A DNA stretch of 63,529 nucleotides from Gemmatimonadales bacterium (GTDB lineage: Bacteria > Gemmatimonadota > Gemmatimonadetes > Gemmatimonadales > JACORV01). The notes under the pieces were generated by a model. The model was not told the origin of the DNA and made no database searches. It saw only the letters and a list, made by a program, of their open reading frames with translations. The position numbers and the translations under genes were made by a program. The DNA lies in the NCBI GenBank assembly GCA_030697825.1, contig JAUYOW010000078.1:1-63529 (forward strand), given 5' to 3'. Positions 2,489 to 13,647 of this stretch are shown one piece after another (positions within the stretch are counted from its first letter, which is position 1; each line of letters opens with the position of its first letter).

Positions 2489-2613
2489 ACCTAACATCAA
2501 CCGCTTGTAGCAGTCGGCCCGGCCGGCCGCGCCGGCAGGTGTCTGTTGCGGCTCGGATGAAGTGTTGGCGCGGCCGAAGCGCCGGGCCGCAGCTAAAGCG
2601 CAACTCGTTAGAT
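2489..2613 (+). repeat. attC site 1
   Basis: R'' ACCTAAC (2489-2495) and R' GTTAGAT (2607-2613). The GC-rich imperfect inverted repeat between them has ggcccggccggccgcgccgg pairing with ggcgcggccgaagcgccgggcc. Confidence 0.65.
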
Positions 2614-2656
2614 GCCACCCAAGACCCACTATCTTGACGGTCCGCTGCGGTCGGCC

Positions 2657-2685
2657 TTGACCGCGGGCGTGGGTTGTCATACATT
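2657..2685 (+). promoter_or_regulatory. candidate sigma70-type promoter of the vapBC-like cassette
   Basis: TTGACC (2657-2662), a 17-nt spacer, then TACATT (2680-2685), ending 7 nt before the ATG at 2693 (near-leaderless). These AT-rich hexamers stand out in GC-rich DNA. The short palindrome TGTC...GACA overlaps the -10 and the start. Confidence 0.35.
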
Positions 2686-2692
2686 GTAGGAC

Positions 2693-2911
2693 ATGAAGAG
2701 CGCGCTCACTATCCGCCTCGACCGAGAGCTGCAACGGCGCCTCGATCGACTGTCGAAGCAATCCGGGCGGACTCGCAGCGAGATCGTACGCGACGCCCTC
2801 CGGCGGCAGCTTGCCCTGCTCCAGTTCGATCAGCTACGCCGCCAGGTCGCGCCGTTCGCTGAGGCGCGCGGCTACCTCACCGACGAGGACGTCTTCCGCG
2901 ACATCTCGTGA
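2693..2911 (+). CDS. vapB: ribbon-helix-helix (CopG/VapB-type) antitoxin
   Basis: 72 aa. The N-terminal LTIRLDRELQRRLDRLSKQSGRTRSEIVRDAL is a typical RHH motif. Its stop overlaps the downstream PIN gene start by 4 nt. Confidence 0.8.
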   Translation: MKSALTIRLDRELQRRLDRLSKQSGRTRSEIVRDALRRQLALLQFDQLRRQVAPFAEARGYLTDEDVFRDIS

Positions 2912-3321
2912 AGGTCTGCCTCGACTCGAACGTCCTCGTCAGTGCTTTTGCAACCCGGGGCCTCTCGGCCGATGTGTTGCGGATTGTGCTCGCCGAGCAT
3001 GAGTTGCTGGTACCTGAGGTGGTGTTGGCGGAAGTCCGAAAGGCGCTTGAACAGAAGTTCCGTCTCCCCGCGCAGGTCGTAACCGGCATCGAGCAACTGC
3101 TGCGCGATCAAACCGTCATTCCGAGGCCGCGCAAGCCATCAACCGTCCCGGTTCGTGACCCGGACGATGCTTGGGTCCTGGCATCTGGCATCGCGGGGGC
3201 GGCCGATGTCCTCGTTACCGGCGACAAGGACCTGCTGGTTGTCGCGTCGAAGGCGCCGCTACCAATCGAGTCGCCGCGCCAGTTCTGGGAGCGACTCCGG
3301 GGGCAATCGGGTGGCACCTAA
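2908..3321 (+). CDS. vapC: PIN-domain toxin (VapC-type)
   Basis: 137 aa. It has an MKVCLDSNVLVSAF N-terminus with the acidic D, a later DPDDAWVLA, and TGDKDLL motifs typical of PIN nucleases. Its TAA stop lies inside the attC R'' box. Confidence 0.8.
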   Translation: MKVCLDSNVLVSAFATRGLSADVLRIVLAEHELLVPEVVLAEVRKALEQKFRLPAQVVTGIEQLLRDQTVIPRPRKPSTVPVRDPDDAWVLASGIAGAADVLVTGDKDLLVVASKAPLPIESPRQFWERLRGQSGGT

Positions 3322-3441
3322 CTAGCGCTTGAACTTGTCGAGCCGGCTGGCCGCGCTGGCGCATTTGCTGTAGGTTATTCAGCAACAGCGCACCAGCGCG
3401 GCCAGAACGCCGGCTCGCAGGTTAAGCGCACTTCGTTAGGT
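3316..3441 (+). repeat. attC site 2 (family A)
   Basis: R'' ACCTAAC, spacer tagcgc, L'' TTGAAC, then ccggctggccgcgctggcg pairing with caccagcgcggccag, L' GTTAAG, and R' GTTAGGT (3435-3441). Confidence 0.8.
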
Positions 3442-3691
3442 GGCAACTGCTTATCCGCTTGCCTCCACGGAGCCCGGGCCAGCGGAACTTGGAGGGGCAC
3501 CGGCCGACAGGGACCGCTACTGCTTGGGGCTTGTGGAGCTAACCGGATAAGCAGAAGGTGGCATATGACCGCGTTATCGCTGGGGAATGCGTGAGATCGC
3601 TTATAGTCGATGACTGCTTTCGACCCAGAGCGGGCATTGAAGCGTGGACTTTCCGTAGGCTCCTCGGGAGGGAGGCGGAGGGGGCATTAGA

Positions 3692-4822
3692 GTGGTTCCG
3701 AACGTAAAGGGGATTGCCCGGGTCGGCGGCTACTGGATGCTCTTCGGCCTCGGGTTCCTTGCGGTGGGGCTGTTAATTTTGTATGTGTGTCTGGCATCGC
3801 CATTGCCGCCCCCCGGGTGCACGACCGGTAACGTCGCTACCTTCGGCGGCGTGCTCGCGCTCCTCGGAGCCTTGTTCATGTGCGTGCGCTGCGGCGTCAT
3901 TGTCGACCGGCAGCGACTCACTGTTACGACCTGGTGGGGGCTCCTCGTTCCGTTTCACAAGACCGAGCATCGCTTCTCGCAAAGCCATCATGTGACCCTG
4001 TCGCGCGAGGAGCGGCAAGCCGGCAAACGAACCTATGAAGTCTTTCCGGTGAGGCTGGAAGGCCCCGGCACCGATGCGATTACGCTTCACGAGCCTCGCG
4101 ATCACGACAAGGCGCGCCACCTCGCCGAGGAGATCGCCAAGTTCGTCCACCTCGGGATCCGGGACCGGTCCTCGGGAGAGGAAGTCGCGCGCGAGGCCGG
4201 CGCGCTCGACCAGTCTTTGCGGCAGCGCGTGAAGCGTTCGCGCCGGTCCCTGCCGCTTCCCGCGCAGCCGCCGCAAGCAAGGGCAATTTTCGAATACGGC
4301 GGAACCCGGGCGCCCACCACGATCGAGATCCCGCCTGTCGGCCACAGCGCGCGGGAGTTTCGGCTGATGATCTTTTTAGCGTGCTTTGGCGCCCTCTTTG
4401 GTGAACTGGTTAACTACAACGAGTGGGGCATGGAAATCGGCGTAATGGGGCTGTTCGGTTTCTTGTTCGTTCTGGTTATTTTCCTGCCGCTCTTAATTCG
4501 CAGCGCCATCGTCCGAGAGCGCCTGATCGTCTCGCCGGACGACCTCGTCGTTACCCAGCGCGATATCTTCGGCACGAAGACGACTCGGCTGACTTCCGGC
4601 GAGATCGAGGAAGTGGAAGTAATCCAGGCTAAGTACGGAATGTCCGGCGGCTTCGCGGTCATCGGCGGCGGCAAGGGCCGCGTCGCCATCCGTAGCGATC
4701 ACGGCTCAATCGAGCTGGGTGCAGCGCTCTCGAATCCGGAGGAGGTCAAGTGGCTAAGCGATGTCCTCGTTCATGTCCTGACCTCGGTTTCCCGTGATGC
4801 CGGCGGTAACGCCCGCGCCTGA
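3692..4822 (+). CDS. membrane protein with duplicated 2-TM + PH-like module (unknown function)
   Basis: 376-aa ORF filling one cassette. Two hydrophobic helix pairs (residues about 15-70 and about 225-265) are each followed by a soluble segment of about 90 aa (VIVDRQRLTVTTWW... and AIVRERLIVSPDDLVV...). Confidence 0.6.
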   Translation: MVPNVKGIARVGGYWMLFGLGFLAVGLLILYVCLASPLPPPGCTTGNVATFGGVLALLGALFMCVRCGVIVDRQRLTVTTWWGLLVPFHKTEHRFSQSHHVTLSREERQAGKRTYEVFPVRLEGPGTDAITLHEPRDHDKARHLAEEIAKFVHLGIRDRSSGEEVAREAGALDQSLRQRVKRSRRSLPLPAQPPQARAIFEYGGTRAPTTIEIPPVGHSAREFRLMIFLACFGALFGELVNYNEWGMEIGVMGLFGFLFVLVIFLPLLIRSAIVRERLIVSPDDLVVTQRDIFGTKTTRLTSGEIEEVEVIQAKYGMSGGFAVIGGGKGRVAIRSDHGSIELGAALSNPEEVKWLSDVLVHVLTSVSRDAGGNARA

Positions 4823-4864
4823 CCGATCGTAGGCATTCCACGTGACATCCGCGAATTGGCTGCC

Positions 4865-5086
4865 ACCTAACTAGCGCTGAGCCTGTGCGAAAACACCGTT
4901 CTGAGCACCCCTAAGTTGTTGATTTACAACGCTGCCACTGCTGCCAAAGTGGCGTTTTCACACGGGCTCCGCTTGAACCTGTCGAGCCGGCTGGCCGCGC
5001 TGGCGCCCTTGCGGTAAGTTATTCAGGGAACAGCGCACCAGCGCGGCCAGGACGCCGGCTCGCAGGTTAAGCGCCATTCGTTAGGC
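4865..5086 (+). repeat. attC site 3 (family A) carrying a 91-bp insertion
   Basis: R'' ACCTAAC (4865-4871) and R' GTTAGGC (5080-5086). Apart from the insert at 4879-4969 it is nearly identical to site 2. Confidence 0.8.
4879..4969. mobile_element. 91-bp MITE-like palindromic element, copy 1
   Basis: Its ends, GAGCCTGTGCGAAAACACC and GGCGTTTTCACACGGGCTC, form a 19-bp imperfect terminal inverted repeat. It is flanked by CGCT (4875-4878) and CGCT (4970-4973). The uninterrupted site 2 has a single CGCT at the same place. Confidence 0.75.
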
Positions 5087-5108
5087 AGCAACGGTCCGGA
5101 GCCACCCC

Positions 5109-5136
5109 TTGCCTGTATCACGGATACCGTTATATT
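5109..5136 (+). promoter_or_regulatory. candidate promoter of the higBA cassette
   Basis: TTGCCT (5109-5114), a 16-nt spacer, then TATATT (5131-5136), upstream of the GTG start at 5166. Confidence 0.35.
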
Positions 5137-5165
5137 AGCAGGGTGACCTCCCTCCGGCGGCGCCT

Positions 5166-5459
5166 GTGATTGTGTCCTTCGCCGATGCCGGCAGCGAGGA
5201 CATCTTCAATCGCCGGGATACCAAGATTGCGAGACGCACCTGCCCGGCCTCGTTGTGGCCTGTGGCGGGCCGCAAGCTGGATCAGCTGAACGCTGCGGTC
5301 AGCCTCGGGTCGCTGCGTGTCCCTCCCGGTAACCGCTTGGAGGCCTTGCGCGGCGACCGGGCGGGGGAGCACAGCATTCGCGTGAACCAGCAGTATCGGG
5401 TCTGCTTTACGTGGACCGAGGCCGGCCCTGAGCGTGTAGCGGTCGTCGACTATCACTAG
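5166..5459 (+). CDS. higB: HigB-type (RelE/ParE superfamily) toxin, plasmid-maintenance killer protein
   Basis: 97 aa. The pattern IVSFADAGSEDIFN...LRVPPGNRLEALRGDRAGEHSIRVNQQYRVCFTW is characteristic of HigB. The toxin-first gene order is typical of higBA. Confidence 0.8.
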   Translation: MIVSFADAGSEDIFNRRDTKIARRTCPASLWPVAGRKLDQLNAAVSLGSLRVPPGNRLEALRGDRAGEHSIRVNQQYRVCFTWTEAGPERVAVVDYH

Positions 5460-5467
5460 GAGCAGGT

Positions 5468-5797
5468 ATGGTTCGAATTCCTTCGCATGGAGCGCCCACG
5501 CACCCTGGCGAGATGCTGCTGGAGGAGCTCCTCAAGCCGTTGGGAATGACGCAGCGTGAGCTGGCCGCCCGGCTTGGCGTGTCGTACCCACGGATCAACG
5601 AGCTCATTCACGGCAAGCGTGGCGTCACGCCGGATACCGCCTTGCGGCTAGAGCAGTTGTTTGGTATGGAGGCTCAGTTCTGGCTGAATCTTCAGCTTGC
5701 GTGGGATCTCTACCACGCGGCGCGCTCGCCGGCCGCCCGGACCATTCGTCGCATCAAGCGGCTCCGGCGCTCGCCGCGGTCCCGGGTTGCTGCCTAA
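5468..5797 (+). CDS. higA: HigA-type antitoxin (XRE-family HTH)
   Basis: 109 aa. HPGEMLLEELLKPLGMTQRELAARLGVSYPRINELIHGKRGVTPDTALRLEQLFG matches the HigA HTH. Its TAA stop is embedded in the attC R'' GCCTAAC. Confidence 0.8.
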   Translation: MVRIPSHGAPTHPGEMLLEELLKPLGMTQRELAARLGVSYPRINELIHGKRGVTPDTALRLEQLFGMEAQFWLNLQLAWDLYHAARSPAARTIRRIKRLRRSPRSRVAA

Positions 5798-5899
5798 CAA
5801 TCGCGTGAAGTTGACGAGCCGCGGCGCGGCGCGCATACCAAGGTGCGGTTGTGGCGCTCTTGGGCGCCGCGCCTCGCAACTTACGTGCGGTCGTTAGGC
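5792..5899 (+). repeat. attC site 4
   Basis: R'' GCCTAAC (5792-5798) and R' GTTAGGC (5893-5899) are perfectly complementary. The inner inverted repeat has gttgacgagccgcggcgcggcgcg pairing with gcgccgcgcctcgcaac. Confidence 0.75.
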
Positions 5900-5927
5900 G
5901 GCAACGCTGATCGGGGGGCGATACCGC

Positions 5928-6104
5928 ATGCTCCAGCTTTGGCAAGTAATCGGGCTCGTGGTCGTAGCCGTCCTTCTGGTCGTGCTCGCAAGTCGTGTCC
6001 GCAGCGCACACCGCTCGGCCGGACCGCAGAACTCGTTGTGGTTCGATGTCGGCGGTCACGGTCAGCATCACCACAGCCACGGCACCGAAGGCTCGTCCCA
6101 CTAA
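5928..6104 (+). CDS. small (58 aa) single-TM peptide with His-rich tail; below the ORF-track cutoff
   Basis: Starts at ATG 5928. Translation is MLQLWQVIGLVVVAVLLVVLASRVRSAHRSAGPQNSLWFDVGGHGQHHHSHGTEGSSH. It is the only sense ORF in this cassette, and its TAA stop sits in the CTAAC core of the next attC-like site. Confidence 0.45.
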   Translation: MLQLWQVIGLVVVAVLLVVLASRVRSAHRSAGPQNSLWFDVGGHGQHHHSHGTEGSSH

Positions 6105-6200
6105 CTGTACCACGTGGTCGTTCCCTTGGAGCCTTCCGTGAGCCAACGAACAAGGCCTCCGTAGTCACTGAGAGACAGCCTGTGGCGTAGGTCGTTCGCA
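6099..6200 (+). repeat. degenerate attC-like site 5
   Basis: R''-like CACTAAC (6099-6105) and R'-like GTTCGCA (6194-6200; compare ggtcGTTCGGC in family B). TACCACGTGG pairs with CCTGTGGCGTA with unpaired bases. Confidence 0.4.
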
Positions 6201-6246
6201 AAGCTGTTGGCGCCCCCGGTGAACCCCGACGTCGTGACGAGCTCGG

Positions 6247-7917
6247 CTACCTCTGTGGTGACCTGAGAACGATTCGCAGATTCCCTCCTTCCCATTGGAT
6301 GGTCGCACTGGCGGCATGCACCACAACCCCCGGCAACTCAAATCTCAACTCACGGACCTCCTGACCGGTCAGCGCCACGCCACCGGTCGCCCTCACTGCT
6401 TCCTGGGGAGAGATGGCCCTCGGTAACCGGAACCGGATCAGCTTGCCCTTCTTGTCGTGGAGGAGGGGCGTCGGCTCCGTCTGCGCGACCTCGGAGCCGT
6501 CCGGGAAGTGGGCGCGGATGGGGATCTGCGCGTAGATGGTTCGATCCGAATCTACGACTGTGATGCCGAAGGGGGTGAAGGCCAGCGCCACTCGTGGAGT
6601 CTCAAGGGCTCCGTAGTCCACGATGATGCCGGTTCCGACGCCATGCTCGATGCGCGCCAGCACCGTGTCGATCCGGGCTCGACCTTCGTCCGCGAGACGG
6701 CTCTTCGCGGCAACCAGTGAATCGAAGTCTCTGTCCCGTCGCGTTTCCTCCAGCGCTCTGCCCAGCTCGCCGGCAGCGGCACCAATCGCGCCCACTGCGA
6801 GATCCGTGAGGGACACCTCGGGTTCGACGATTCTGTCCTTCCAGTTCGTGGAGAGCCGGTCGAGCAGGGCGCCGATCGCCATGCCCGAGTAGTACAGTCT
6901 CATGCGCAGGGGGGCGGTGCCATACGGGTCGTTGTTGACCAAGACCTCGCCCCGCATGTGCTGGAGCATTCTGTCGACGAGTTGGGAGCGTCGGGATGCC
7001 AAATTGCCGTACCCGCCGAATCCCTGAACCCACCACATCTCCGGGCCAGGGGTTCGACCTTCGAGCAATTCGAGCAGCCGGTACTCCGCGTACTTGGCGA
7101 GACCTTCGCTGAACTCCACTCCGTTCTCGTACTCGATGGCTTCCGGCGGGAGCACGGATCTGCGCTGCCGTCGCAGCGCCAACCATCGCACGACGGCGGA
7201 CCTGAATGCCGTGTCGGATGCGGCTCGCAGGGCTGCCGCCAGCGCCGCGCCCTCCTGCGCAAACCCCACATTGTTCGCCACCGAGAGCACGGGGTAGTGC
7301 AGCAGGAGCATCTCGTTGGCACCCTTCGACGGGGCCACACGCCCCTGGAAGACGTGGAAAGCCTCGTGAACGATGAGTGTGAGCTGGTCGTATGGATCGA
7401 TCGCCAACTGCGAGAAGCTGAGGTCCGGCGGTCTCTCGGCTGGAGGTCGCGGGGCCTCCATCACACCGCGGAGCTGCTGCCTCAGGTTGGACAGGGCATC
7501 GGCAACCACCAGCGTCCGGACTCCCTCGACGTCGCGCGACGTGTTCTGGCCGTCGTACTGGAGGAACCCGGGACCGTCCCGCACCAGGATGCGTCCTCCC
7601 GGAAACCGCACCGGCCCATCATAGACGACGAAGCCCGCAGGTGGTCGGGGGTGATTGATGAGCACATCCTGCTCGCCGGGAAGGTAGAGGAGGATCGGGG
7701 TGTCCGAGGCATCCCAGCCGCGCCAGATGGGGTTCTCCCGCCCGGCGATTAGACGCCACACCTCCGCTGCTTCGACGATCAGCCGTGGGTCTACCCGAAG
7801 CACAGCTCCCGGCGCTCCGGGCAACTGGCTCGCGCTTGCAGCCACACCTTGGGCAATCGTGACTCCAGGAGCCAGCAGGAGGAAGGCCGTCGTGAATGGC
7901 AGTACCCGTCGCGTCAT
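6247..7917 (-). CDS. secreted protein with HExxH (HEAFH) zinc-metallopeptidase-like motif
   Basis: 603-aa ORF. The likely start is the internal M (7917), which gives the signal peptide MTRRVLPFTTAFLLLAPGVTIAQG. It contains LIVHEAFHVFQ. It is oriented opposite to all cassette ORFs. Confidence 0.6.
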   Translation of the reverse strand: MTRRVLPFTTAFLLLAPGVTIAQGVAASASQLPGAPGAVLRVDPRLIVEAAEVWRLIAGRENPIWRGWDASDTPILLYLPGEQDVLINHPRPPAGFVVYDGPVRFPGGRILVRDGPGFLQYDGQNTSRDVEGVRTLVVADALSNLRQQLRGVMEAPRPPAERPPDLSFSQLAIDPYDQLTLIVHEAFHVFQGRVAPSKGANEMLLLHYPVLSVANNVGFAQEGAALAAALRAASDTAFRSAVVRWLALRRQRRSVLPPEAIEYENGVEFSEGLAKYAEYRLLELLEGRTPGPEMWWVQGFGGYGNLASRRSQLVDRMLQHMRGEVLVNNDPYGTAPLRMRLYYSGMAIGALLDRLSTNWKDRIVEPEVSLTDLAVGAIGAAAGELGRALEETRRDRDFDSLVAAKSRLADEGRARIDTVLARIEHGVGTGIIVDYGALETPRVALAFTPFGITVVDSDRTIYAQIPIRAHFPDGSEVAQTEPTPLLHDKKGKLIRFRLPRAISPQEAVRATGGVALTGQEVRELRFELPGVVVHAASATIQWEGGNLRIVLRSPQR

Positions 7918-8201
7918 GACACACCTCACATGCAGCGGTTCACGGCCGAGTGGTACGGGGTTACGCGACCGCCGCCTCCCGAGATCATCCGGTGGGCGCA
8001 GCGTCTCAGAGGACTGGATGCCGGAGCGACGGGCAGCGTTGCAGGGCCGAGGGCGCAACCGGTCTCAGAGCCGCCGACTAAGGTCTGAGACCGCGGAGCG
8101 GTCACCCTCTTGGCCGCTCCACAGCACAACTTCGGCACAATGCGAAGCCGCCGGCCGATGGAGCGCTGGGGCTAACAGATTGCTGGGCTTGATGTTAGGA
8201 G

Positions 8202-8246
8202 TGGCCAGGGACGGAATCGAACCGCCGACACGCGGATTTTCAGTCG
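8202..8246 (-). pseudogene. tRNA-Phe(GAA) 3' fragment (anticodon loop to acceptor 3' strand)
   Basis: The reverse complement reads ACTGAAAATCCGCGTGTCGGCGGTTCGATTCCGTCCCTGGCCA. This gives a CTGAAAA anticodon loop, a variable loop, a T-arm (GGCGG TTCGATT CCGTC), and an acceptor 3' strand. No matching 5' acceptor strand (GGCCAGG) or D-arm follows. Confidence 0.6.
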
Positions 8247-8691
8247 CCGACAGGGCTTTCCTCGTGAACCCCTTGAGGTCTCCCGCAGTCACCAAGCCTA
8301 TCCGACAGTAGCAGACAAGATTCTGGGCCGTCCCCGCCTGTCCCGGTAAGGCTGATCCTGTCCCGCCCCACTATCCGCACCAGTCTGCGGGCTCCCCTGC
8401 GCAGCCCGTTGCTCGTCCTCCGCCTCGTCCTCCTTCAGGAACCAGAGGAGCCGAGAGAACTTGGTTCAGCCTCTCGCTGAAGTTTGTGTTTTCGAGATGT
8501 TTTCCGCTGACGGGCTGAAGCGACTCAGCCCAACTTGCGGCCTCAACCTGGGGCTGGCACTGGTCGGGCGCCGTCGCCACGGAATGCCGGCTGCTGGCTC
8601 AACCGCACCGCGGTCACCTTAAACTCGAGGCTGTACTCTCGCACCTTCCTCGGCCCCGGCCGTGCCACAGACACCCCCTTGTTAGATGGAA

Positions 8692-8841
8692 GTGTCTACG
8701 AAAGTGAGGGAGGTTCCCGGGCCGGCTGGACGCGCTGGCGGCGCCCGCGCCGAGCTTCTATGCTAGAGACAGTATTCAGAGGCGCGGGCTTGCCAGCGCG
8801 TCCAAGACGCCGGCCCGCAGCTTAAACCCATCGCGTTATAC
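8692..8841 (+). repeat. attC site (family A, degenerate R'')
   Basis: GTGTCTAC looks like GTCTAAC minus one A. It is followed by ccgggccggctggacgcgctggcgg pairing with gccagcgcgtccaagacgccggcccgcag, then CTTAAA, then R' GTTATAC (8835-8841). Confidence 0.55.
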
Positions 8842-8889
8842 GGCGCCGACGAGTCATCGCGACGAGAGAGAACCGGAGGCGAGCGAGCC

Positions 8890-9126
8890 GTGAACTATGA
8901 CACAGATAAGGTCGACGAGGCGGTGCTCGCCCTCATGTACCTCAACCTGCACGAGGGCTCAGGAGGTACGCGCGCGTGGAAGGGTTTCGACTGGGACGCG
9001 CTTGGGCGCCTCCACCAGCGCGGGATGATAGCGAGCCCTCGTGGCAAGGCGAGATCGGTGCTCCTTACGGCCGAGGGCCGGAAAGCTTGCGAGACCGCAT
9101 TTGCCAGGCAATTCGGCGCCGTCTAA
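8890..9126 (+). CDS. DUF6429-like small protein
   Basis: 78 aa. The pattern DKVDEAVLALMYLNLHE...RAWKGFDWDALGRLHQRGMI is recognised from memory as the DUF6429 family. Its TAA stop is inside R'' GTCTAAC. Confidence 0.6.
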   Translation: MNYDTDKVDEAVLALMYLNLHEGSGGTRAWKGFDWDALGRLHQRGMIASPRGKARSVLLTAEGRKACETAFARQFGAV

Positions 9127-9314
9127 CTTGCGCTGAGCCTGTGCGAAAACACCGTTCTGAGCACCCCTAAGTTGTTGATTTACAACGCTGCCACTGCTGC
9201 CAAAGTGGCGTTTTCACACGGGCTCCGCTTGCAGTTGACGGGCCGCCCGCCGAGGTTGGTGCAGCCGCTGCGCACGGAGTGGGCGGCCCGCAACTGAAGC
9301 GCTATCTGTTATGC
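9121..9314 (+). repeat. attC site carrying a 91-bp insertion
   Basis: R'' GTCTAAC (9121-9127) and R' GTTATGC (9308-9314). The inner inverted repeat has gcagttgacgggccgcccgcc pairing with gtgggcggcccgcaactgaagc. Confidence 0.7.
9135..9225. mobile_element. 91-bp MITE-like palindromic element, copy 2
   Basis: Identical in sequence to copy 1. It is flanked by CGCT (9131-9134) and CGCT (9226-9229), at the same offset (14 nt) from the start of R''. Confidence 0.75.
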
Positions 9315-9339
9315 AGCCAGCGATCACCAACAGCGGGAG

Positions 9340-9870
9340 GTGTCCGTGCCTCGGATTCGGTACGCGGTGGCGATCAGTTTGGATGGCTATATCGCAGGGC
9401 CCAAGGGCGAAGCCGACTGGATCCTCATGGATCCTGACATCGATTTTCGCGCCTTATTCGCGCAATTCGACACATTTCTCATGGGGCGCCGCACCTTCGA
9501 GGGAATGGCGGGCGCAGGTGGCCCCGGGGCAGCGGGCGGGAAGACCTTCGTCTTCTCTCGCAGTCTGCGGCCGCTGGACCATCCGGACGTGACGATCATC
9601 GCTGACGTGTCACCAGCGACGGTCGCCCCCATTCGGGCGCAAGCAACGAAGGACATTTGGCTGTTCGGTGGAGGACTCCTGTTTCGGAGTTTTCTGGACG
9701 CGGGGCTCGTGGATACGGTGGAGGTCGCGGTCATCCCAGTGCTCCTCGGCGGCGGGCTCCCGCTTCTTCCACACCCAGCCCATCAGGCGAAGCTCGCGCT
9801 GACCGGCCACCGAGTGTACAAGACGGGCATTGTCTCCCTGGAGTACGCCGTGACAAAACTGGCTGCCTAA
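9340..9870 (+). CDS. dihydrofolate-reductase-family protein (RibD C-terminal-domain type)
   Basis: 176 aa. RYAVAISLDGYIAGPKGEADWI...FLMGRRTFE...IWLFGGGLLFRSFLDAGLVDTVEVAVIPVLLGGG is typical of this family. Its TAA stop is inside R'' GCCTAAC. Confidence 0.75.
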   Translation: MSVPRIRYAVAISLDGYIAGPKGEADWILMDPDIDFRALFAQFDTFLMGRRTFEGMAGAGGPGAAGGKTFVFSRSLRPLDHPDVTIIADVSPATVAPIRAQATKDIWLFGGGLLFRSFLDAGLVDTVEVAVIPVLLGGGLPLLPHPAHQAKLALTGHRVYKTGIVSLEYAVTKLAA

Positions 9871-10085
9871 CTAGCGCTGAGCCTGTGCGAAAACACCGTT
9901 CTAAGCACCCCTAAGTTGTTGATTTACAACGCTGCCACTGCTGCCAAAGTGGCGTTTTCACACGGGCTCCGCTTGAACCTGTCGAGCCGGCTGGCCGCGC
10001 CGACGCTCTTGCGGTAAGTTGTTCAGGAACAGCGCAGCGGCGCGGCCATGACGCCGGCTCGCAGGTTAAGCGCACTTCGTTAGAC
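9865..10085 (+). repeat. attC site (family A) carrying a 91-bp insertion
   Basis: R'' GCCTAAC (9865-9871) and R' GTTAGAC (10079-10085). The backbone is nearly identical to sites 2 and 3. Confidence 0.8.
9879..9969. mobile_element. 91-bp MITE-like palindromic element, copy 3
   Basis: Differs from copies 1 and 2 by one substitution (G to A at 9903). It is flanked by CGCT (9875-9878) and CGCT (9970-9973). Confidence 0.75.
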
Positions 10086-10110
10086 GGCGGCGATTGACCA
10101 TCACGAGCGA

Positions 10111-10362
10111 GTGGTGCAAGCTTCGGCGGTGGACTTTCGGATACTCAGCCGGATAACCAACGTCGAGACCATCGCATCCGGTCGCGGCATCCGTGAACTC
10201 AAGCGCCTTCTGCGGGTGTACGGGAGGGCTCGGTGGCGCAAGCGGAGGGGCGTTGCCACGGTCGAGCTCCAGGACGGCGCGGTTCGGCTCGCCGAGTTAC
10301 ATTGGTACGAGGCGTCAGGAGTGGGTCGCAAGGAGTTCAAGATCAAACACTACCTCGACTAG
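10111..10362 (+). CDS. conserved hypothetical small protein (first gene of a two-gene cassette)
   Basis: 83 aa. It has a basic WRKRRG segment and a C-terminal AELHWYEASGVGRKEFKIK motif. No family assignment is possible by eye. Confidence 0.5.
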   Translation: MVQASAVDFRILSRITNVETIASGRGIRELKRLLRVYGRARWRKRRGVATVELQDGAVRLAELHWYEASGVGRKEFKIKHYLD

Positions 10363-10373
10363 GTCTAACCGCA

Positions 10374-10598
10374 ATGGCCGCTGCTCGCAATTTCGTTCTG
10401 TGCCTTCGCAATGGTGGCTACGAGGTGTCCCTCGAGCCCCGGAAACTCTATCAGGCCATACCCGACCGCCACGCCGCGGCACACGGACAGCTGCGCGTTG
10501 TCGACGAGTCGGGCGAAGACTATCTCTATCCTAAGTCGCTCTTTGCTCCCATCAAGCTACCGCAAGCTGTTCGCCGCGCCGCTTTCGCCGCCGTCTAA
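10374..10598 (+). CDS. conserved hypothetical small protein (second gene of the cassette)
   Basis: Starts at the internal ATG 10374 of the listed 10233-10598 ORF. Translation is MAAARNFVLCLRNGGYEVSLEPRKLYQAIPD...LRVVDESGEDYLYPKSLFAPIKLP. Its TAA stop is inside R'' GTCTAAC. Confidence 0.5.
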   Translation: MAAARNFVLCLRNGGYEVSLEPRKLYQAIPDRHAAAHGQLRVVDESGEDYLYPKSLFAPIKLPQAVRRAAFAAV

Positions 10599-10758
10599 CT
10601 AACAGTTGTAGCTGACGAAGCGCCGCGTCCGCGCCGTGCGCCGTGGCGTTTGTGGGCTGCCTATCGTATGCTCAAGGCAGCTTCCCGCCGGTGGCCGTTC
10701 GGTGCGCACGCGGCACCGTGCCCGGCGGCACTTCGCAGCTAAACTGTACTCGTTAGGT
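10593..10758 (+). repeat. attC site
   Basis: R'' GTCTAAC (10593-10599) and R' GTTAGGT (10752-10758). The long imperfect inverted repeat has agttgtagctgacgaagcgccgc pairing with gcggcacttcgcagctaaactgt. Confidence 0.7.
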
Positions 10759-10778
10759 GGCACACGCTGAGAACCAAT

Positions 10779-11120
10779 GTGCGAGTCGCGACCGGGCTGT
10801 TCGTCCTCGCCCTTGCTGGCTGTCATCGCGCAGCGAGCACTTACAGCGAGACATCGCCTACCAGAACTTGCGCCGGTCGTCTAGTCCTGGAATTCACCAA
10901 TCGTTTAGTGGAACCAGTACAGGTTGGCTGGATTCCCGCAGGCGATTCTAGCACCGTCTCTGTTGAGGTAGGCCCGACCTGGCTCGGTACCATCGGCCGG
11001 GGTACTGCGCGCTATGCGGTAATGGGACCGGGGTACGTGATCTTTCGCACGGCGAACCCCTCTGGGCTCACCGGAGAGCACCATGATGTGACCCACCGTC
11101 TGCTCTGCGTCCAAGGCTAG
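10779..11120 (+). CDS. small lipoprotein (unknown function)
   Basis: 113 aa. The N-terminal MRVATGLFVLALAGC carries a lipobox. Confidence 0.55.
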   Translation: MRVATGLFVLALAGCHRAASTYSETSPTRTCAGRLVLEFTNRLVEPVQVGWIPAGDSSTVSVEVGPTWLGTIGRGTARYAVMGPGYVIFRTANPSGLTGEHHDVTHRLLCVQG

Positions 11121-11158
11121 TAGCAGGGAGCGAGGCGGTTAGAGCCCGAGGTGTGCCA

Positions 11159-11291
11159 CCTAACTAGGAATTGAACCTGTCGAGGGCCGGCTGGCCGCGC
11201 TGGCGGGTGCACTCGCCAAGCGTTATCGTAGGCTACGTAGGGCCAGCGCGGCCAAGGCGCCGGCTTGCAGCTTATGCACTATGCGTTATAC
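11159..11291 (+). repeat. attC site (family A)
   Basis: R'' ACCTAAC, then TTGAAC, then ctgtcgagggccggctggccgcgctggcg pairing with ccagcgcggccaaggcgccggcttgcag, then CTTATG, then R' GTTATAC (11285-11291). Confidence 0.75.
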
Positions 11292-11318
11292 GCATTAGCC
11301 GATTCGGTTGGTGGTGTG

Positions 11319-11801
11319 ATGCAGATTCGGCGGCTAGAACCCTCAGACCGCGAGTGGTCGAACGCGCTGGTCGGCGCCCATTTCGGCTCGTCACGCGTCG
11401 TCTCACGCGGTCGGCTGTACGACGCGACTGCCCTTCCCGGGTTCATCGCGATGCATGACGGTGTCCCTGCGGGCCTGCTCCAGTTCCGGATCGCCGGGAG
11501 CACCTGCGAGGTCGTGGTCCTGGTGGTCGAACGGCCCCGCGAGGGTGTCGGCACTGCCTTGCTGGACTCGATGCGGGAGGCGGCTCGCTCCGCCGGTTGC
11601 TCTCGTCTGTGGCTCGTCACGACCAACGACAACACGGTGGCGCAGTCGTTCTATCGGGCTCTCGGCTGGCGGCTCGTGACGGTCCACAAAGGGGCCGTGA
11701 CGCGCTCGCGCGTCCTCAAGCCGGAGATTCCTGAGTTTGGCGCAAACGGTGTGGCGATCGAGGACGAACTTGAATACGAACTGTGCGTAAGTCGCGTATA
11801 A
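11319..11801 (+). CDS. GNAT-family N-acetyltransferase
   Basis: The start is taken at ATG 11319, because the listed start at 11265 lies inside the attC. ERPREGVGTALLDSMREAARSAGCSRLWLVTTNDNTVAQSFYRALGW is a GNAT motif A region. Its TAA stop is inside R'' GTATAAC. Confidence 0.75.
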   Translation: MQIRRLEPSDREWSNALVGAHFGSSRVVSRGRLYDATALPGFIAMHDGVPAGLLQFRIAGSTCEVVVLVVERPREGVGTALLDSMREAARSAGCSRLWLVTTNDNTVAQSFYRALGWRLVTVHKGAVTRSRVLKPEIPEFGANGVAIEDELEYELCVSRV

Positions 11802-11881
11802 CAAGAGCTTGAACCTGACGCGCCGAAGGTGGTCATACTCTGAAAGCGCGCGGCGCGCAGGTTAAGCTCAACACGTTAGCG
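11796..11881 (+). repeat. attC site (short)
   Basis: R'' GTATAAC (11796-11802), then cttgaacctgacgcgccg pairing with gcgcggcgcgcaggttaag, then R' GTTAGCG (11875-11881). Confidence 0.65.
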
Positions 11882-12006
11882 TGCAGCAAAGAACAAAGTT
11901 GGTTTCGGGAAGAGCGGCATCGTCTCAATCATTCGGCCATCGGTCCGCTGCGCCAGGGCAGCCGCAGCTTTGGATGCACGCGGCGGCGCCCCACCATGGT
12001 GGCGAT

Positions 12007-12096
12007 CGGCACATGGTTGAGAGCGGCGCGATCTTCCCAGACGCTGGTTTCGTTCTGGGCGCCACCGCGCCGCAACTTAAGCCCATGTCGTTCGGC
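12007..12096 (+). repeat. degenerate attC-like site closing an ORF-less cassette
   Basis: ggttgagagcggcgcg pairs with cgcgccgcaactt, followed by aagcccatgtc and R' GTTCGGC (12090-12096). The R'' is poorly conserved (CGGCACA). Confidence 0.4.
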
Positions 12097-12114
12097 GGCC
12101 TAGGAACGGTGAGA

Positions 12115-12636
12115 ATGACCGACACTCAGCAGGAGATTCAAATCCGTGGCGCGGTGCTTGATGACGCCGAAGCGCTCGTCAGCGTTCTCAACCCAATCAT
12201 CGAAGCGGGAACCACGGCACTCGATACGATGCTGACGGTTGCTGACGAGCGCGACTACATTGCGAGCTTGCCAGAGCGAGCGATCTTTCTCGTCGCGGCA
12301 CGGGCGCTCGACGGAACGCTCGTCGGGTGCCAAAGCGTGGAACCGTTCACGACTGGGGGGACGCACGCCTTCGATCACGTTGGGGTGATGGGGACCTACG
12401 TGGCCGTGGGGCACCAACGGCGGGGGATTGGGCGGCGATTGTTCGAGGCGATGTTCGAGCAGGCGCGGCGCAAGGGCTACGAGAAGATCTTCACGTATGT
12501 GCGTGCGGACAACACGGCAGGGATGGCGGCGTACCTTGGGCAGGGATTTCGGGTCATCGGGACGGCTGAACGACATGCGAAGATCGATGGACAATATATT
12601 GACGAGGTGCTCATCGAGCGGTTTCTACCCGACTGA
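12115..12636 (+). CDS. GNAT-family N-acetyltransferase (YncA/PAT-like)
   Basis: The start is taken at ATG 12115, downstream of the attC-like site and preceded by ggtgag. HVGVMGTYVAVGHQRRGIGRRLFEAMFEQARRKGYEKIFTYVRADNTAGMAAYLGQGF is a GNAT core. Confidence 0.75.
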   Translation: MTDTQQEIQIRGAVLDDAEALVSVLNPIIEAGTTALDTMLTVADERDYIASLPERAIFLVAARALDGTLVGCQSVEPFTTGGTHAFDHVGVMGTYVAVGHQRRGIGRRLFEAMFEQARRKGYEKIFTYVRADNTAGMAAYLGQGFRVIGTAERHAKIDGQYIDEVLIERFLPD

Positions 12637-12673
12637 CTGCCTACGGGTCGAAGCAAAACGTACAGCAACGGCC

Positions 12674-12767
12674 GCCGAACCAGCGCTTGCACCGGAGGCC
12701 GGCGCAGCCGAGGCCTCATCCTTCGTCCGGTATCGTTGCGCCGGCCCGGTGAACTTGGTCGTTCGGC
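12674..12767 (+). repeat. attC site (family B)
   Basis: R'' GCCGAAC, spacer cagcgc, TTGCAC, then ccggaggccggcgcagc pairing with gttgcgccggcccgg, then TGAAC, then ttggtc and R' GTTCGGC (12761-12767). Confidence 0.75.
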
Positions 12768-12788
12768 GGCTTGCCGCGGCGTGACTGT

Positions 12789-13529
12789 ATGGTGAATGAA
12801 CTCGGGCATGTTTGCGAACTTGTGCGGTATCCCGTCAAGTCGATGGCTGGTACCGTGACGGAGTCGGCATTTCTCGGGTGGCACGGTCTCGATGGTGATC
12901 GGCGCTTCGCCTTCCGGCGCTTGGGAGATGACAGCGGTTTCCCGTGGCTTACCGCGAGCCGCGTCGCTGAACTCCTTCTGTACCACCCGTTCGGTCTCGA
13001 CGAGAGTACCGGCGAGCCCCTGCCAACTCACGTACGCACACCGGTCGGAACGCACGTGGAGCTTCGCAGCGTAGAGCTCCAGAGCGAGGTCGGCGAGCGT
13101 TTTGGGAGCAGCGTGGAATTGATGAGGCTCAAGCACGGGATCTTCGATGAAGCCTCGGTATCGGTGATTAGCCTGGCGACCATTGCTGGCATCGGTGGCG
13201 AGGCGGGAGTGGACCTCGATCGCAGGCGCTTCCGAGCCAACATTGTGCTTGAGACTCGCGGCCGCGAGCCGTTTCTCGAGGATGGGTGGGTTGGCGGGAC
13301 ACTGGTGTTCGGCAACAGCGAGCCAAGGCCAGCCGTGAGCGTGACGGTGCGCGACGTGCGATGTATGATGATCAACCTCGATCCGGACACGGGCACACAA
13401 GACGCGCGGGTGCTGAAGACAGTCGTCCGGCTGAACAAGAACAACGCGGGCGTCTATGGAACGGTGGTGCAAACCGGTACAATCCGCGTTGGCGACCCAG
13501 TGAGCCTCGTATTGGACGCGCGGCGCTAA
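12789..13529 (+). CDS. MOSC-domain protein (YcbX-like)
   Basis: VCELVRYPVKSMAGT...GLDGDRRFAF is a MOSC N-terminal beta-barrel pattern, followed by a C-terminal MOSC-like region (FRANIVLE...). The start is taken at ATG 12789. Confidence 0.7.
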   Translation: MVNELGHVCELVRYPVKSMAGTVTESAFLGWHGLDGDRRFAFRRLGDDSGFPWLTASRVAELLLYHPFGLDESTGEPLPTHVRTPVGTHVELRSVELQSEVGERFGSSVELMRLKHGIFDEASVSVISLATIAGIGGEAGVDLDRRRFRANIVLETRGREPFLEDGWVGGTLVFGNSEPRPAVSVTVRDVRCMMINLDPDTGTQDARVLKTVVRLNKNNAGVYGTVVQTGTIRVGDPVSLVLDARR

Positions 13530-13554
13530 GACGAGCGTTTGACGTTTTCGCGCC

Positions 13555-13647
13555 GCCGAACTAGCGGTTGCACCGGACGCGGCGCAGCGGAGTCTTATTG
13601 GTTCATCGAGTGCGGCCGCGCCGCGCCGGTGAACCTGGGCGTTAGGC
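13555..13647 (+). repeat. attC site (family B); last confident site
   Basis: R'' GCCGAAC (13555-13561), spacer tagcgg, TTGCAC, then cggacgcggcgcagcgg pairing with ccgcgccgcgccgg, then TGAAC, then ctgggc and R' GTTAGGC (13641-13647). Confidence 0.75.

Follow-up and report, generated by a model that had tools for sequence, protein, structure and literature searches.

A 91-bp sequence interrupts three attC sites of an integron gene cassette array in a Gemmatimonadales bacterium (assembly GCA_030697825.1, contig JAUYOW010000078.1). The stretch that was analysed, here called the window, comprises positions 1 to 63,529 of the forward strand of this contig, 63,529 nucleotides in all. The copies in the window and their relatives elsewhere indicate that the 91-bp element is very probably a miniature inverted-repeat transposable element (MITE) with terminal inverted repeats (TIRs) of an IS1182 lineage of insertion sequences (ISs), mobilised in trans and specific for attC.

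The attC core sites, R'' (RYYYAAC) and R' (GTTRRRY), were located by pattern; they enclose an imperfect palindrome that has additional bases in the R''–L'' arm. The two arms of the palindrome differ in their spacers, which measure 3 + 4 nt between R'' and L'' and 6–7 nt between L' and R'. All three copies begin 14 nt past the first base of R'', behind a 4-bp duplication that is separated from the R'' core (YTAAC) by 3 nt. Their ends form 19-nt imperfect TIRs, GAGCCTGTGCGAAAACACC / GGCGTTTTCACACGGGCTC, with 3 mismatches between them. A search of the window for these ends, allowing up to 3 mismatches, returned exactly six matches, the six MITE ends, where 0.02 would be expected by chance. The initial annotation of this DNA had reported that copies 1 and 2 are identical and that copy 3 deviates by one base at 9903, as well as the imperfect 19-bp repeats, the flanking CGCT direct repeats and the fixed distance from the start of R''; all of these features were reproduced.

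The same annotation had assigned two of the hosts to one attC family and regarded the host at 9121 as unrelated, with which we agree. It had further pointed to sites at 3316 and 11159 as empty sisters carrying a single CGCT. Both are indeed empty, and the site at 3316 has the single CGCT, but the site at 11159 reads GAAT at that position. An empty-attC allele of the three filled cassettes themselves was not found among all fetched loci (blastn of the window). Of the three filled cassettes, two have an open reading frame (ORF) that terminates at the TAA of R'', namely the DUF6429 ORF (8890–9126) for host attC 2 and the RibD_C ORF (9340–9870) for host attC 3; insertion 3 nt downstream therefore cannot damage the gene.

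To place the element in a wider context, copies were collected by two scans which used the end sequence only and disregarded the flanks. A degenerate 19-mer matching both ends, applied to one genome per species, yielded 63 loci. Full-length copies were present in seven of these; four (L004, L009, L037, L057) belong to three metagenome-assembled genomes (MAGs) of Gemmatimonadetes/Gemmatimonadaceae, and two (L006, L015) lie on short contigs from one sample that were binned as Novosphingobium and Hyphomonadaceae. The right-end 20-mer, applied to metagenomes, yielded 83 contigs, mostly from soil, sediment and groundwater. A viral contig collection contained no copy of the MITE. After deduplication, six MAG contigs and the 83 metagenome contigs provided 68 unique copies, among which 45 different sequences are represented. 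The copies are 86–94 bp long, nearly all of them exactly 91 bp, and are thus too short to encode a transposase. Alignment of the 45 distinct sequences revealed that the outer 16 nt of the TIRs are kept in all copies.

Insertion occurs at one nucleotide position of attC. All 55 distinct sites that could be classified cleanly lie in the R''–L'' arm, in the form YTAAC-N3-[4-bp duplication]-TGNAG. Oriented by the attC, the site reads GCCTAAC-N3-[N4]-element-[N4]-TGAAGCTG..., followed by the remainder of the attC hairpin and GTTAGGC. The TAA is invariant in these sites, the next base is C in 52, and the 4-bp duplication is perfect in 51. The MITE is oriented as in the window at 21 sites and reversed at 34. 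Insertion into the L'–R' arm, which would be recognisable by its 6–7 nt spacer and the missing extra base, was not found among the classifiable copies. The metagenome and genome search for the 91-mer had been proposed in the initial annotation, with copies lying mostly outside attC as the outcome that would speak against targeting; instead, all 55 classifiable copies occupy the attC position. Since many unrelated attCs are involved, the suggestion of a MITE-like insertion that targets attC, and is not an ancestral part of it, was corroborated. That hits are independent is evident from L093 and L117, two homologous attCs which carry the MITE in opposite orientations.

The view that CGCT is the target did not hold up. 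CGCT was duplicated at 25 of the 55 filled sites and CGCA at seven, the remainder comprising 17 other 4-mers (e.g. GGGT, CAAA, GAAT). CGCT is also the commonest 4-mer at the target position of empty attC arms from the same loci (14/33). As the 4-mer composition is the same in empty and filled attCs, CGCT represents the local attC consensus and not a target.

Several copies depart from the simple arrangement. At L004 (1–176), two MITEs are arranged in tandem next to R'', with one copy of the duplication in common. In four cases the same type of flank is found on both sides of the MITE, of R'' type in L079, L100 and L110 and of L'' type in L078; these could be the reciprocal products expected from inversion between opposite copies, or assembly joins. 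In others (L065, L084/L103, L104, L081:1400–1467, L090:1314–1335) only the right part of the MITE remains, joined to the L'' side of an attC, while the left side is fused to unrelated, often coding sequence and R'' is gone. The remnant may be as short as 22 bp (L090), and several of the breakpoints are near the internal sequence CCTAAGTTG, which resembles the R'' core. Two candidates for larger elements were dismissed on inspection. L090 had been considered as an autonomous element and is such a 22-bp MITE-end remnant fused to a cassette ORF, and an apparent 857-bp element in L081 consists of a separate 141-bp MITE and a truncated 91-bp copy. Single end matches from numerous MAGs, including those of Amaricoccus, Microvirga and Acidobacteriota, were traced to other IS1182 relatives or MITEs at non-attC sites.

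The 141-bp element (L081:611–751) represents a second MITE family. It has the same 16-nt termini and occupies the same position in attC, where it is flanked by an AGCG duplication, and its interior is unrelated to that of the 91-bp element.

A longer, probably autonomous relative, for which the initial annotation had advised to look, was identified in other DNA than the window. This is an IS of the IS1182 family, 1662–1678 bp in length, with a single ORF for a 475-aa transposase and 16-nt terminal repeats, and it shares the ends, the duplication length and the attC position of the MITE. Its termini match those of the MITE at 15–16 of the 16 positions. Three loci bring both together. On contig L108, which also carries the 91-bp MITE, a 1668-bp IS (2784–4451) is inserted in an attC with the flanks GCTAAC-aag-CGCA[IS]CGCA-TGGACC. 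On L131, one end of an IS is directly adjacent to CGCT-TGAAGCTG, and the two attCs that follow contain one MITE each; on L009 an IS remnant ends ACCG-cgt-GTTAGGC beside the MITE-bearing attC.

A search with the transposase fragment of L131 found intact 475-aa proteins in more than 120 clusters, with identities of 82–94%. Members annotated at NCBI are termed IS1182 family transposase and come from MAGs of Rokuibacteriota, Methylomirabilaceae and Dehalococcoidia. Two of the proteins scored 404.9 bits (P0086) and 399.6 bits (P0041) with the NCBIfam IS1182 model NF033551 (cut-off 270), and Pfam assigned the domains DUF772, DDE_Tnp_1 and DDE_Tnp_1_6 to the transposase. A plasmid collection contained no close transposase, the best match being 55% identical. 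The flanks of the IS were read on contigs fetched for six of the 475-aa proteins. On the 3' side of the transposase gene, every copy with a readable flank continues with the 4-bp duplication and, after a further 3 nt, with GTTAGRC or a related form (e.g. GTTGGAC, ACTAGGC), which is the R'' arm. The transposase gene is antisense to the cassettes at 11 of the 12 distinct sites and sense at one (L168).

Two further arrangements of the IS were seen. In L168 (2850–4584), the only sense case, the full IS is preceded by a 73-bp inverted IS-end fragment in the same attC. In L147–L155, identical IS copies have one common right flank and several different left flanks, either through recombination between IS copies or as metagenome assembly chimeras at a 1.67-kb repeat.

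Relatives with the same termini also insert outside attC. An Amaricoccus MAG contains five copies (L024, L026, L053, L055, L062) of a 1602-bp IS1182-family IS which encodes a 488-aa DUF772/DDE transposase, and GGCC is duplicated at each of the five. Other IS1182 relatives with these ends generated 4-bp duplications of TCTG, GACC, GATC and GGTC at non-attC sites. GGCC together with GACC, GATC and GGTC suggests a GNNC target preference in the non-attC relatives. Their transposases are about 45–55% identical to those of the attC lineage. Because the end sequence also occurs on transposase-encoding relatives that make 4-bp duplications, we assign the ends to IS1182-type elements.

In the mechanism that we propose, the 475-aa DDE transposase of the IS1182 lineage, supplied from elsewhere in the genome or the community, would bind the 16-nt ends in trans and insert the element into duplex DNA by a 4-bp staggered cut, and repair of this cut would give rise to the 4-bp duplication. 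The choice of target that was observed is very narrow. The 4 bp are those located 3 nt downstream of the R'' core and directly before the L'' box (TGNAG), and the element enters in either orientation and in the R''–L'' arm only, the near-palindromic L'–R' arm remaining unused. This spot follows the TAA at which many cassette ORFs end, and it belongs to the attC of the cassette itself; genes are therefore left intact by the insertion, and the element would move along with its cassette.

Staggered cuts in duplex DNA give a 4-bp duplication within a single arm, whereas integration into the extruded hairpin would join both arms. Integration thus probably involves the duplex, and recognition would then read the R'' core and its spacing, possibly together with L'', rather than the folded hairpin. 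A few cases suggest, as a working hypothesis, that R'' carries weight in recognition: L091, L099 and L113 keep CCTAAY-N3 despite atypical right flanks, the second element of the L004 tandem entered between R'' and the first element, and in L168 the IS lies beside an IS-end fragment in the same attC.

The consequences for cassette recombination were considered by fold prediction. The empty site at 3316–3441 folds as single-stranded DNA with a z-score of −10.1 and bulged bases. For the bottom strand of a filled site (host attC 1), a three-way junction was predicted in which the R box and the main stem are kept and the MITE forms a hairpin of its own; in comparison with the empty site, the second copy of the duplication is unpaired. 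This prediction agrees with the earlier idea that the element might protrude as a side arm. The 91-bp element alone folds only modestly better than shuffled sequences (z = −2.8). Filled attCs may still recombine; as the insertion separates the R and L boxes that are bound by the integrase, it may also lock cassettes or change their excision rates. One filled cassette occurs in both L082 and L120 but has another downstream neighbour in each, the sequences diverging right after the GTTC of R'. This pattern hints that the filled attC, or its empty ancestor, has taken part in integrase-mediated exchange, and independent insertion into two copies of the cassette could also account for it.

A number of observations weigh against an attC-specific MITE mobilised by the IS1182 lineage. 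The window encodes no IS1182-type transposase according to tblastn, which for this type bears out the earlier statement that a transposase is absent. In the only complete IS on a MITE-bearing contig, that of L108, the transposase gene contains one frameshift and one stop codon, and the IS of L131 is cut by the contig end. The interior of the MITE has no significant similarity to the examined ISs, with a single exception of 25 nt (88%) in one copy; the link between IS and MITE consequently rests on the ends, the duplication length, the target and the co-occurrence. L091, L099 and L113, with their atypical right flanks, are possibly not canonical attCs. Since the metagenome copies were collected by exact match to the right-end 20-mer, divergent copies or copies in other contexts could be missed. 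Finally, the interior and the length of 91 bp are unusually conserved across the 45 distinct sequences, and a purely parasitic nature does not explain this.

This conservation, which includes the interior blocks TTCTGAGCA, CTAAGTYGTTGATTT and GCTGCCACTNCTG, would be accounted for if the element were mobile and had in addition been co-opted, its interior serving as a regulatory or structural module such as an outward promoter, an RNA, or a lock or modulator of cassette excision. The predicted three-way junction would change the geometry of the L box, and group IIC-attC introns carry outward promoters (PMC3001079). We nevertheless regard co-option as unlikely. A scan revealed no sigma-70-like promoter or terminator within the element, there was no Rfam match, the gain in folding over shuffled sequences is weak, and inspection of the 45-sequence alignment by eye did not reveal any covarying stem beyond the inverted repeats. 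The occurrence of both orientations argues against a directional function, and the conservation may simply reflect recent spread and sampling by exact match.

Alternatively, attC might be targeted with the help of another mobiliser (a different transposase, a route via the folded attC, or the integron integrase), with the shared ends reflecting distant ancestry. The unrelated interiors and the lack of a transposase in the window would fit this, as would the wide distribution of the ends among IS1182 relatives with other targets. On the other hand, the IS, the 91-bp MITE and the 141-bp MITE agree in their ends, in the 4-bp duplication and in the nucleotide position, and IS and MITE co-occur on L108, L131 and L009. 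Judged from established mechanisms, a 4-bp duplication in one arm is moreover the signature of DDE integration into duplex DNA and not of tyrosine-recombinase or single-strand chemistry. We therefore consider another mobiliser quite improbable, and mobilisation of the MITE in trans by the IS1182 lineage the probable course.

There is very little room for near-random insertion with subsequent survival of only those copies that fell into harmless, non-coding attC. Some survivorship bias is to be expected, as attC is non-essential, and the copies were sampled by exact end match. However, selection cannot produce single-nucleotide precision, and the 55 sites have the same offset from YTAAC; the equally harmless L'–R' arm, loop and intergenic cassette spacers were never used, and the full-length ISs are equally precise. 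An ancestral origin of the 91 bp within a single attC family, with loss by deletion in the sisters or spread by gene conversion, might be read from the two window hosts of one family and from the frequent CGCT at this position, but it is effectively refuted by the many unrelated attC types, the different 4-mers duplicated and both orientations, by the presence of its TIRs on ISs which encode a transposase and produce this same duplication, by the clean single target of the empty site at 3316 and by the tandem copies of L004 with their shared duplication.

Two kinds of attC-homing elements are known, the IS1111-attC elements and the group IIC-attC introns, which are found near the 5' end of attC, antisense and in one orientation (PMC3001079). 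Members of the IS1111 group have a DEDD transposase that is guided by a seekRNA (PMC11187229). Like the elements described here, the IS1111-attC elements (ISPa21, ISPst6, ISKpn4) are specific for attC, near its 5' (R'') end, and are usually antisense (PMC3001079; PMC11187229). The partner IS is mostly antisense as well, and a fixed place near the 5' end is common to both systems; this is a resemblance in behaviour only. IS1111-attC elements combine a DEDD transposase with subterminal repeats, whereas we found TIRs, a 4-bp duplication and a DDE partner of the IS1182 family; they use one orientation, while the MITE occurs in both and the partner IS was once found in sense. IS1111 elements are not known to generate a target duplication, and we know of no MITE derivative of IS1111-attC.

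The group IIC-attC introns share with our elements that they form a monophyletic, attC-specialised lineage near the 5' end which is carried inside cassettes (PMC3001079). They differ in being retroelements, roughly 2 kb long, that contain a ribozyme, encode a reverse transcriptase, use the bottom strand and one orientation and have neither TIRs nor duplications. No group II ribozyme or other Rfam family was detected on the 91-bp element, either at the gathering threshold or at E ≤ 1; the searches of the whole window (gathering threshold) and of a filled attC (E ≤ 1) gave only sub-threshold matches of miRNA-type hairpins to attC stems.

The partner IS fits the IS1182 family in profile, length and 16-nt repeats, the family ranging from about 1.3 to 1.95 kb, and relatives that share its ends likewise duplicate 4 bp of their targets. 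It differs from the examined relatives in its target, as these insert at short non-attC sequences (GGCC, GACC, GATC, TCTG). Classical MITEs (Correia/NEMIS, RUP, ERIC) and integron-associated MITEs are short, non-coding, multi-copy elements with TIRs and short duplications which depend on a cognate IS for mobilisation in trans. Short, non-coding and multi-copy as well, the 91-bp element also has TIRs and a short duplication. Classical MITEs use short, loosely defined targets such as TA, and the integron-associated ones, the 439-bp MITEs of Acinetobacter and the 'integron mobilization units', flank whole integrons as composite structures. To our knowledge, none of these has been reported inside attC at a fixed nucleotide. 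By their properties, then, the 91-bp element is a MITE and its partner an IS1182-family IS, and the defining features of IS1111-attC elements and group IIC-attC introns were found in neither.

A 2024 survey of cassette amplicons encountered many IS5-type transposases in arrays and credited attC targeting to IS1111 only (PMC11089894). We did not find an earlier description of an attC-targeting MITE or IS1182 element in the searchable full-text literature, ISfinder being outside the scope of this search. The elements would thus be the third kind that targets attC, after IS1111-attC and the group IIC-attC introns, and the first of DDE/MITE type known to us. If this is true, attC targeting was invented a third time, in a mechanistically independent way and for the first time by a cut-and-paste enzyme. 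The currency of gene exchange by integrons is attC, and a DDE lineage that homes to it with nucleotide precision, together with MITEs, would point to repeated evolution of such targeting. The system would also offer a simple protein–DNA model in which to study how a DDE transposase recognises a 7-nt core site from a fixed distance.

The size limit commonly set in programs for attC detection is below about 220 bp. Filled attCs of about 220 bp exceed it, and cassette boundaries in environmental integrons would consequently be mis-called. The family is common in metagenomes of soil and groundwater, where most integron diversity lies. The repeated 91-bp copies in arrays are substrates for inversion and deletion, and chimeric flanks have been observed.

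A more far-reaching scenario is possible, though on balance we have doubts about it as a whole. Here, a DDE lineage of the IS1182 family evolved recognition of the duplex R''–L'' sequence and has at least two MITE families associated with it. Owing to the self-folding of the MITE, filled attCs would stay usable by the integrase, so that the elements would ride gene cassettes between genomes and phyla, a kind of hitchhiking at which L082/L120 hints, and inversions driven by oppositely oriented copies would reshuffle or freeze parts of the arrays.

The coordinates of the copies, of their host sites and of the empty sites are compiled in Table 1.

Table 1. MITE copies, target duplications and attC sites in the window (position 1 is the first nucleotide of the window).
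Feature	Position	Strand	Description
MITE copy 1	4879–4969	+	91 bp; GAGCCTGTGCG end adjoins R''; 19-nt imperfect TIRs; identical to copy 2
MITE copy 2	9135–9225	+	91 bp; 19-nt imperfect TIRs
MITE copy 3	9879–9969	+	91 bp; single difference at 9903, A for G
CGCT duplication, copy 1	4875–4878 (left), 4970–4973 (right)	+	
CGCT duplication, copy 2	9131–9134 and 9226–9229	+	
CGCT duplication, copy 3	9875–9878 and 9970–9973	+	
Host attC 1, filled	4865–5086	+	222 bp; R'' ACCTAAC 4865–4871; R' GTTAGGC 5080–5086
Host attC 2, filled	9121–9314	+	R'' GTCTAAC 9121–9127; R' GTTATGC 9308–9314; unrelated to family of attC 1 and 3
Host attC 3, filled	9865–10085	+	R'' GCCTAAC 9865–9871; R' GTTAGAC 10079–10085; same family as attC 1
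Empty sister attC, family of attC 1 and 3	3316–3441	+	CTAAC-TAG-CGCT-TGAAC; single CGCT 3326–3329
Empty related attC	11158–11290	+	CTAAC-TAG-GAAT-TGAAC; GAAT at target position 11168–11171, no CGCT
Cassette array hosting the three MITEs	2489–13645	+	about 13 attC sites, all R'' to R' on the + strand

The cassettes of the array include toxin–antitoxin pairs (RHH/PIN, HigB/HTH) in addition to DUF6429 and RibD_C. The box II motif of tyrosine recombinases, by which an intI gene might be recognised, was not found in the six-frame translations of the window; this is a crude test, and an intI gene might be located beyond the ends of the window. The ORFs flanking the array are not integrases. In the absence of an integrase motif, and going by the window, the array looks like an attC cluster that lacks intI. 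Outside the array, the window consists of chromosomal DNA with a G+C content of about 70%. It encodes a leucyl-tRNA synthetase with 96% identity to that of a Gemmatimonadota MAG, and the named matches that come next belong to Gemmatimonadales. To the left of the first attC (2489), the minus strand bears a small ORF with a frameshift (2008–2684); a peptidase S41 gene (52–2007) is also located on this side.

Between 6100 and 8840 the array is interrupted by a minus-strand block, which includes an ORF of 603 aa (6247–8058) without a Pfam hit. No tRNA was called by ARAGORN in the window, but by eye the minus strand around 8200–8290 resembles the 3' part of a tRNA, a stretch which Rfam did not call either. 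Beyond it, near 8832–8838, an attC with the end GTTATAC lacks its R'' half. The block may be the remnant of an integrative element.

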